This document shows positions 10,029 to 10,643 of a DNA stretch of 22,945 nucleotides, in pieces. How positions within the stretch are numbered: position 1 is the first letter of the stretch; each line of letters starts with the position of its first letter. The stretch lies in IMG/VR virus record IMGVR_UViG_3300031578_000354. One strand, 5' to 3'. The translations under genes and the position numbers were made by a program. A model generated the notes under the pieces. The model was not told where the DNA came from, ran no database searches, and saw only the letters and a program-made list of their open reading frames with translations. Source of the DNA: a virus.

Positions 10029-10643
10029 TTATCGCGCCCTTTCTAATTCAGTTTTAAAGTGTTGTACAAATTCTTGCGAGTACTTTTGTCTTGATTTAAT
10101 ATACCACCAATCAACCATATCTCGAAACTCTGCTATAAAATCCTCAGACAATATTTGAGCACGAGATATCATCGGCCAACTTAATTTATCCTTAAACGCC
10201 GACATAAAATCCTCAGATAGTATTTGATTTCGGGAAATCGCATCCCACTCAAGTTTATCGTGAAATGTTGCTATGAAATCTTCAGATAATATTTGAGATT
10301 CAGATATATTTTCCCACTCAAGTTTATCGCAATGCTTAATCATAAACCGTTCTGAAAGTTGTTGGTAGAAGCTGATCTGATCCCAGTCTACAAGATGACT
10401 AAAGCTCTCAATAAACTCTTCCGAAAGTTTTTGATATACTGAAATATAATACCAATCAACTCTGTCTTGACACTTGTCTATAAAATCTTCAGATAATTTC
10501 TGATATTTTGAAATGCGATCCCAAACCACTTTATCTTTAAACTCTGTTATAAAATCCTCGGATAATTTTTCCTCTTCGCATAGTAATATCCAATTTACGT
10601 CATCAGGATTTTTGCGTATTGCTTTAATTTGTCGTTGATTCAT
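10029..10643 (-). CDS. tandem-repeat protein (eight 23-aa repeats, Q-x-LSEDF-I-x2-F-x-D-x3-W-x2-IS)
   Basis: 204 aa. After residue 25 the sequence consists of successive 23-aa units (QKLSEDFIDKCQDRVDWYYISVY, QILSEDFIATFHDKLEWDAISRN, ...). The underlying 69-nt DNA repeats are visible (aaatcctcagacaatatttga...). Confidence 0.6.
   Translation of the reverse strand: MNQRQIKAIRKNPDDVNWILLCEEEKLSEDFITEFKDKVVWDRISKYQKLSEDFIDKCQDRVDWYYISVYQKLSEEFIESFSHLVDWDQISFYQQLSERFMIKHCDKLEWENISESQILSEDFIATFHDKLEWDAISRNQILSEDFMSAFKDKLSWPMISRAQILSEDFIAEFRDMVDWWYIKSRQKYSQEFVQHFKTELERAR
10035..10575 (-). repeat. intragenic tandem repeat, ~69-nt unit x ~8
   Basis: Recurrent DNA motif aaatc(c/t)tc(a/g)gata(a/g)tat(t/c)t(g/c) at a ~69-nt period on the minus-strand coding frame of 10029..10643. 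Confidence 0.6.

Follow-up and report, generated by a model that had tools for sequence, protein, structure and literature searches.

The tryptophan-repeat gene and its product

The stretch of DNA analysed here (the window, 22,945 nucleotides (nt) of the IMG/VR virus record IMGVR_UViG_3300031578_000354) carries, at positions 10029-10643 of its minus strand, a gene for a protein of 204 amino acids (aa) made of 23-aa tandem repeats with a tryptophan (Trp) in each full unit. On sequence evidence this protein is a member of a known, named and functionally uncharacterised viral family, the tryptophan repeat family, and it is predicted with high confidence to adopt an alpha-solenoid fold with two helices per unit. 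The limits of the open reading frame (ORF), from ATG to stop, had been placed exactly by an earlier reading of the letters alone (the sequence-only reading), to which the minus strand is added here. It is the one Trp-repeat copy within the window. The gene and its parts are as follows:

10029-10643, minus strand: coding sequence of the 204-aa tryptophan-repeat protein, from the ORF list (ATG at 10643, stop codon TAA at 10029-10031)
10651-10655, minus strand: Shine-Dalgarno-like AGGGA, read from the sequence, 7 nt 5' of the repeat-gene ATG and overlapping the stop codon of an upstream nucleotidyltransferase-like gene
10575-10643, minus strand: N-terminal cap, aa 1-23, one helix plus a half unit; NPDDVNWILLCEE fits D-x-V-x-W-x-x-I
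10506-10574, minus strand: repeat unit 1, aa 24-46, EEKLSEDFITEFKDKVVWDRISK, by register, with model helices at aa 29-34 and 41-47
10437-10505, minus strand: repeat unit 2, aa 47-69, YQKLSEDFIDKCQDRVDWYYISV, by register and model
10368-10436, minus strand: repeat unit 3, aa 70-92, YQKLSEEFIESFSHLVDWDQISF, by register and model
10299-10367, minus strand: repeat unit 4, aa 93-115, YQQLSERFMIKHCDKLEWENISE, by register and model, the most divergent unit
10230-10298, minus strand: repeat unit 5, aa 116-138, SQILSEDFIATFHDKLEWDAISR, by register and model
10161-10229, minus strand: repeat unit 6, aa 139-161, NQILSEDFMSAFKDKLSWPMISR, by register and model
10092-10160, minus strand: repeat unit 7, aa 162-184, AQILSEDFIAEFRDMVDWWYIKS, by register and model
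10032-10091, minus strand: degenerate C-terminal capping unit, aa 185-204, RQKYSQEFVQHFKTELERAR, with which the protein ends

The 23-aa period is strict: at offsets of 23 and 46 the self-identity of the protein is 0.44, whereas 2000 shuffles reached at most 0.16. Seven full units (aa 24-184, exact 23-aa spacing) are preceded by a half unit at the N-terminus (aa ~10-23, 'DDVNWILL') and followed by a degenerate one at the C-terminus (aa 185-204), which begins RQKYSQEFVQHF. The sequence-only reading had described eight near-identical 23-aa repeats; the period stands, but neither the number nor the near-identity does, as the seven full units have a mean identity of 49% at the aa and 59% at the nt level. 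Tandem Repeats Finder detected only two short arrays in the gene (2.3-2.4 copies, 73-76% matches), and a further repeat search gave six copies that are 62-73% identical to the reference. Invariant in all seven full units are L4, S5, E6, F8, W18 and I21 (numbered within the unit), in agreement with the invariant LSE(D/E)F motif and spaced Trp that had been noticed before. The DNA of the gene is 100% identical between contigs of ENA ERZ27256808 and Logan SRR8554503, i.e., two samples processed with different assemblers and pipelines, and four contigs, of which one is 50-200 kb long, encode the exact 204-aa protein. This excludes an assembly artefact with collapsed or expanded reads, a possibility raised by the earlier reading; collapse or expansion by an assembler is moreover not possible because the units are too diverged.

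Predicted fold

The AlphaFold2 model, built on a 46-sequence alignment, has a mean predicted local distance difference test (pLDDT) score of 97.5 and a predicted template modelling (pTM) score of 0.87. In each unit, one helix of 7 residues starts at W18 and extends as far as position 1 of the following unit, and another of 6 residues spans E6 to position 11; these alternate and are joined by short loops. The N-terminal cap has helices at aa 3-11 and 18-24. A guess that the repeats form an alpha-helical solenoid is thus borne out by the model. Helix A corresponds to W-x-x-I-S-x-Y and helix B to E-D-F-I-x-E, and L4, F8, I9, V16, W18 and I21 are confidently predicted to form the core of a unit, the units stacking into an alpha-solenoid of the right size. 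A profile search of PDB sequences with the repeat protein gave spurious OspA matches only.

The likeness to other alpha-solenoids (the HEAT-like alphaRep proteins, the PP2A A subunit, PPR proteins and the leucine-rich repeat variant (LRV) 1lrv) lies in the stacked helix-turn-helix units and the elongated superhelix. Units of these are longer, i.e., about 31 aa in alphaRep, 35 in PPR, 37-47 in HEAT and 24 in LRV. The window unit differs from them with its 23 aa, and the protein had no Pfam match to any of them, HEAT, LRV and PPR included.

Age and evolution of the repeats

The repeats are old and constrained, and have not been expanded recently. When the same aa occurs in different units it is encoded by the same codon in 52% of cases vs 45% expected from the codon usage of the window, third codon positions are 49% identical between units, and adjacent and distant units are equally alike (0.60 vs 0.59). 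In a Nei-Gojobori count between units the proportion of synonymous differences in the scaffold (pS) is 0.72, i.e., near saturation, and that of nonsynonymous differences (pN) is 0.20. Codon sharing, the near-saturated pS and the lack of neighbour similarity together speak against gene conversion as well as the recent expansion or concerted evolution that the sequence-only reading had deduced from a repeat conserved in both protein and DNA with a 69-nt period. That period is real, but on the codon-sharing, third-position and pS data the DNA-level conservation merely follows from constraint that acts on the protein in old repeats. The gene is taken to be functional because pN in the scaffold is well below pS, the sequence is identical in independent samples, a ribosome-binding site (RBS) is present and the coupling to the neighbouring genes is tight.

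The viral tryptophan repeat family

The repeat had been thought not to belong to a known family, which is incorrect: it is the repeat that defines PHROG 3532 and, in entomopoxviruses and Bacillus phage G, the tryptophan repeat gene family. The protein matches the phrog_3532 hidden Markov model with E 1e-60 and 206.5 bits, and also phrog_11920 and phrog_22019, all PHROGs of unknown function. A Foldseek search of the model against BFVD found MSV027, named as belonging to the tryptophan repeat gene family, with E 5.9e-21, 42% identity and a TM-score (TMq) of 0.91 over 195 alignment columns, and further entomopoxvirus proteins, i.e., MSV205 (E 1e-16), AMV029 and proteins of the Mythimna, Choristoneura and Adoxophyes entomopoxviruses. 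The same search returned gp558, gp560 (E 2e-13), gp562 and gp563 of phage G as well as proteins of pithoviruses, marseilleviruses, Orpheovirus, Megaviridae and one iridovirus. Scans of the protein with Pfam, NCBIfam and PADLOC gave sub-threshold noise only, with no PADLOC anti-phage defence family at E <= 0.001 and no RNA-binding family matched in Pfam or NCBIfam, and literature searches for phrog_3532 and for DUF7666 (see below) found no match. The name of the family reportedly goes back to the Melanoplus sanguinipes entomopoxvirus genome paper of Afonso et al. in 1999.

The window protein has in common with the entomopoxvirus proteins (MSV027, MSV205, AMV029, AMV254) tandem units of about 23 aa with an invariant Trp in each; the family is a multigene one in large DNA viruses, of which the 22.9-kb window shows one copy. 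Unlike them it is encoded in a phage-like context (PHROG matches, an RBS, overlapping genes and huge-phage relatives), and AMV254 carries an F-box (PMC7728225) whereas the window protein has no extra domain. Also related are the arrays of jumbo phages (gp556-563 of phage G, LPJP1 and BpSp; PHROGs 3532, 11920 and 22019), to which identity is 45-52% (LPJP1, phage G) and which include repeat-only copies in LPJP1 and phage G. The differences are that these genomes hold 27-38 matching places each and tandem gene arrays vs one copy in the 22.9-kb window, that the C-terminal caps are not alike, and that the window units are more diverged from the family consensus. In phage G, gp556 and gp560 are annotated as tryptophan repeat family, function unknown, in a 2025 paper (PMC12484599). 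A 'novel Myb-type HTH expansion' (HTH, helix-turn-helix) has also been reported for this phage (PMC7824862); it was considered as a possible instance of the Trp-repeat family, whose two-helix unit is unlike a Myb domain in appearance.

In a tblastn search of phage records, matches occurred only in very large phages and usually many times per genome, with 36 matching places in Listeria phage LPJP1, 38 in Bacillus phage BpSp and 27 in Bacillus phage G, and further matches in Clostridium phage c-st, Pectobacterium phage CBB and large (350-385 kb) Escherichia and Yersinia phages. A word-seeded search of large protein collections gave 1435 homologues (best E 1e-80), and an exhaustive search gave 6874 clusters at 50% identity with E <= 1e-3, or 3215 with E <= 1e-10. 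A bacterial and archaeal collection with one genome per species held only 35 loci (L011-L045), all 35 in metagenome-assembled bins and none in an isolate. The bins span many phyla, including Woesearchaeota, Pacearchaeota and Promethearchaeota, and the loci probably represent contigs of viruses that ended up in bins of cellular genomes; a distribution restricted to metagenome bins fits a virus-borne family. An annotated Trp-repeat protein (P0024) was also seen on a 137-Mb scaffold of the spider Argiope bruennichi and may be an endogenous viral element; such elements have been reported for ants (PMC6540820).

Conserved core, variable positions and fusions

A profile of 614 units from 120 homologues gives the family consensus unit YQKLSEDFIREFKDKVDWxxISx, and 614 of the 642 pairs of consecutive units are spaced by exactly 23. 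W18 is present in 98% of the 614 units, and entropy is <=0.2 bits at L4, S5, E6, F8, I9 and W18. At the other extreme, positions 19, 20 and 23 reach 3.4-3.7 bits, and position 1 has 2.5 bits. Counted from W18, these four positions are i+1, i+2, i+5 and i+6 on helix A, and in the predicted fold they would face the solvent while the Trp would be buried.

The number of units per ORF varies from 2 to 20 in the family, up to eight paralogous ORFs are found in one 8.6-kb locus, and LPJP1 has seven consecutive repeat-only genes. Among the 120 best matches, 106 have a C-terminal domain of about 110 aa, which in some reaches the Pfam threshold for DUF7666 (PF24703). Other fusions are N-terminal and MORN-like or Zn-finger-like/Cys-rich, and ten long homologues (700-1400 aa) had no informative Pfam domains. 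The best sequence matches to the window protein are metagenomic proteins of about 300 aa in which Trp repeats are joined to DUF7666 (46-61% identity, E down to 1e-80). They share its C-terminal capping unit, which aligns with their last 'KLSxEFxxEF' unit, N-terminal to a linker and DUF7666. The window protein itself had no Pfam match to DUF7666 and stops at the capping unit; when the whole window was searched by tblastn with two sequences of DUF7666, no remnant was found. The DUF7666 of the relatives is possibly ADP-ribosyltransferase-like, a lead given by weak scores that does not concern the window protein itself; sequence-profile support for it was sought and none found.

It is conceivable that the gene is a decaying, functionless remnant of a Trp-repeat-plus-DUF7666 gene that has lost its effector. 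Nearly all of its closest relatives (46-61% identity) have DUF7666, the capping unit is exactly where the protein ends, and its units deviate from the family consensus at positions 10-13. This is nevertheless unlikely, as the ORF is intact and has an RBS, the core positions are strictly kept with the low scaffold pN relative to pS given above, the model has a high pLDDT, and paralogues made of repeats alone are frequent in LPJP1, phage G and IMG/VR genomes, where they have evidently been maintained.

Neighbouring genes and origin of the window

All genes around the repeat gene are on the minus strand. The other features of the window are:

718-1413, minus strand: Prok-E2_D (ubiquitin-conjugating-like) protein
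5184-7538, minus strand: full-length Lon protease with substrate-binding, AAA, lid and protease domains, overlapping the AAA stop by 1 nt
7538-8899, minus strand: AAA ATPase, overlapping the ligase stop by 4 nt and translationally coupled to Lon
8896-10026, minus strand: Rnl1-type RNA ligase, downstream of the repeat gene (PF09511, E 3e-11; phrog_562, E 6e-31)
10654-11295, minus strand: nucleotidyltransferase-like gene, 213 aa, upstream with a 10-nt gap (phrog_1614, E 6e-5; phrog_4400, E 2e-13)
12412-12437: strong, intrinsic-terminator-like hairpin directly 3' of the 851-aa gene
12445-15000, minus strand: 851-aa protein with a major-vault-protein shoulder domain (E 1e-17) and a weak Vault_3 repeat, no PHROG match
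15428-16630, 18127-18708 and 20815-21324, all minus strand: RlaP 'RNA repair pathway' family, NTP_transf_2 and cytidylyltransferase-like genes

The repeat gene thus lies between an RNA ligase and a nucleotidyltransferase-like gene, as the sequence-only reading had it, and the ligase ATG starts 2 nt after the repeat-gene stop (junction string TAATAATG). Three small ORFs lie between the terminator and the nucleotidyltransferase; they are in part membrane-like, and one of them is a DUF5658 protein. The nucleotidyltransferase, repeat gene, Rnl1, AAA and Lon genes probably form one transcription unit downstream of the terminator, and the nucleotidyltransferase-type genes together with the RNA ligase may make the region an RNA-repair or nucleotide-modification island. 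The 213-aa neighbour is assigned to PF26128 'Gad2' in precomputed Pfam annotation, a separate Pfam scan giving no significant match, and it has no close relative in IMG/VR. A DUF7227 protein is also encoded in the window, and no tRNA genes were found in it. Megablast of the whole window against phage records gave no match. For the ligase and the RlaP enzyme, the nearest relatives were found on an IMG/VR contig of 316 kb and on an 'uncultured phage' record of 485 kb, and the window is therefore most likely from a huge uncultivated phage.

The gene order makes it possible to view the repeat protein as a putative substrate adaptor for the downstream AAA ATPase and Lon, the solenoid capturing a host protein, e.g., one of a defence system, for the protease, as a phage analogue of the poxvirus adaptors that combine repeats with an F-box. 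Nucleotidyltransferase, Trp-repeat, Rnl1, AAA and Lon genes follow one another with gaps of 10 and 2 nt and overlaps of 4 and 1 nt, all five lie downstream of one strong terminator, Trp repeats and F-box are joined in AMV254 (PMC7728225), and the window encodes the Prok-E2_D protein. Such a role is improbable, however, as no Lon or AAA homologue was found beside the Trp-repeat genes of 117 other loci and as shared membership of a phage operon often reflects timing rather than a complex.

Possible function

The reading favoured here is that the protein, as an effector-less stand-alone Trp-repeat solenoid, is a protein-protein recognition module that serves as an adaptor or inhibitor of a host or phage protein. 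By analogy this is fairly probable, and what is mainly in doubt is the kind of ligand rather than the family assignment. The sequence-only reading had proposed a scaffold or a decoy that binds RNA or protein; of these, protein binding is plausible. Helix A would confer the specificity of binding through its variable residues that face the solvent (unit positions 19, 20, 23 and 1). The module of most relatives would carry an effector, i.e., DUF7666 in phage-like genomes and the F-box in one entomopoxvirus protein; the window protein has no effector domain and would therefore be a stand-alone stoichiometric binder, adaptor or inhibitor. It may act during infection by the large uncultivated phage, co-expressed with the nucleotidyltransferase, RNA ligase, AAA ATPase and Lon. 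Engineered alphaRep binders similarly have their variable residues on one face. A likeness in working only is offered by the chordopoxvirus ankyrin-repeat/F-box (PRANC) host-range proteins, also a multigene repeat family with a target-recognising module that sometimes is combined with an F-box; their repeat type is unrelated, and the window protein has no F-box.

In agreement with a recognition role, the variable positions appear to evolve fast. In five paralogue arrays from IMG/VR (L063, L064, L061, L048 and L066), in which the synonymous divergence of the scaffold is still unsaturated (pS 0.33-0.49), the nonsynonymous divergence (dN) between units at positions 1, 19, 20 and 23 is 1.1-2.2 times the synonymous divergence (dS) of the scaffold, which suggests diversifying selection at these positions; the hypervariable positions were, on the other hand, picked from the same data as the dN/dS comparison, which is crude and not tree-based. 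Several other points also weigh against a binding role. The role is drawn from solenoid analogy and fusion logic, because no family member has a demonstrated function or partner, and the exposure of positions 1, 19, 20 and 23 follows from helical periodicity and not from coordinates. The linkage to the ligase is not conserved: the closest ligase relative, on the 316-kb contig (L001), has no Trp-repeat neighbour, three homologue neighbourhoods (L008-L010) are unrelated to the window and have no ligase linkage, and a ligase adjoins in one of about 70 other loci, which is roughly chance level for loci from genomes that commonly carry RNA ligases. Finally, a protein with an isoelectric point (pI) of 4.8 and a net charge of -13 would also fit a nucleic-acid mimic.

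Such an acidic DNA or RNA mimic would decoy a nuclease or restriction system of the host, like Ocr, ArdA and the pentapeptide-repeat proteins. Besides the overall charge, the regular spacing of E6, D7, D14 and D17, the neighbour matching Pfam 'Gad2', a family named after an anti-Gabija protein, and the accessory, nucleotidyltransferase-rich nature of the region speak for it. Yet positive and negative charges almost balance in the consensus unit of the family (K3, R10, K13 and K15 vs E6, D7, E11, D14 and D17), and the repeat regions of homologues have a median pI of 5.2 with a range up to 9, so that acidity is no family trait. No structural match was found between the model and known nucleic-acid mimics, and we regard a mimic as very unlikely.

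Least probable of all is a modular nucleic-acid-binding repeat of the PPR, PUF or TALE type, in which each unit reads one base and the protein takes part in RNA repair with the neighbouring ligase and nucleotidyltransferases. Two to four hypervariable positions per unit in an otherwise fixed scaffold would suit such a reader, and an RNA ligase adjoins the repeat gene both in the window and in a 118-kb IMG/VR contig (L107), where an Rnl-type ligase (2815-3924) lies 53 nt upstream of a Trp-repeat-plus-DUF7666 gene (3977-4885), in the opposite order to that of the window. A tblastn comparison of 15 window proteins with 117 loci, however, found this one ligase adjacency and three distinct co-occurrences of RlaP, which is about chance. 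RNA binding is disfavoured because of the acidic charge, shared by the median homologue, and no RNA-binding family was matched.

Returning to the recognition module, it is tempting to speculate that the solenoid is a target-recognition subunit acting together with its co-transcribed neighbours, which either hands a host defence or RNA-damaging protein to AAA and Lon, or blocks its target while the ligase and nucleotidyltransferases carry out repair. This more specific proposal is a long shot; if it were true, the Trp-repeat family would be a diversifying 'binder library' of huge phages and giant viruses against host immunity. As a family member the repeat gene itself is ordinary and somewhat diverged, and its locus is not special; the family is common to huge phages and eukaryotic giant viruses and is expanded in tandem arrays. 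The leads that can be used are the predicted short-unit solenoid, the variation on what would be the exposed helix face and the recurrent fusion to DUF7666.

A MORN-like repeat, 'WY..GK.HR.DGPA', was seen in two settings, as a whole protein near the ligase homologue of the 316-kb contig (L001, 5483-6133) and fused N-terminally to Trp repeats in a 251-aa ORF of another locus (L074).
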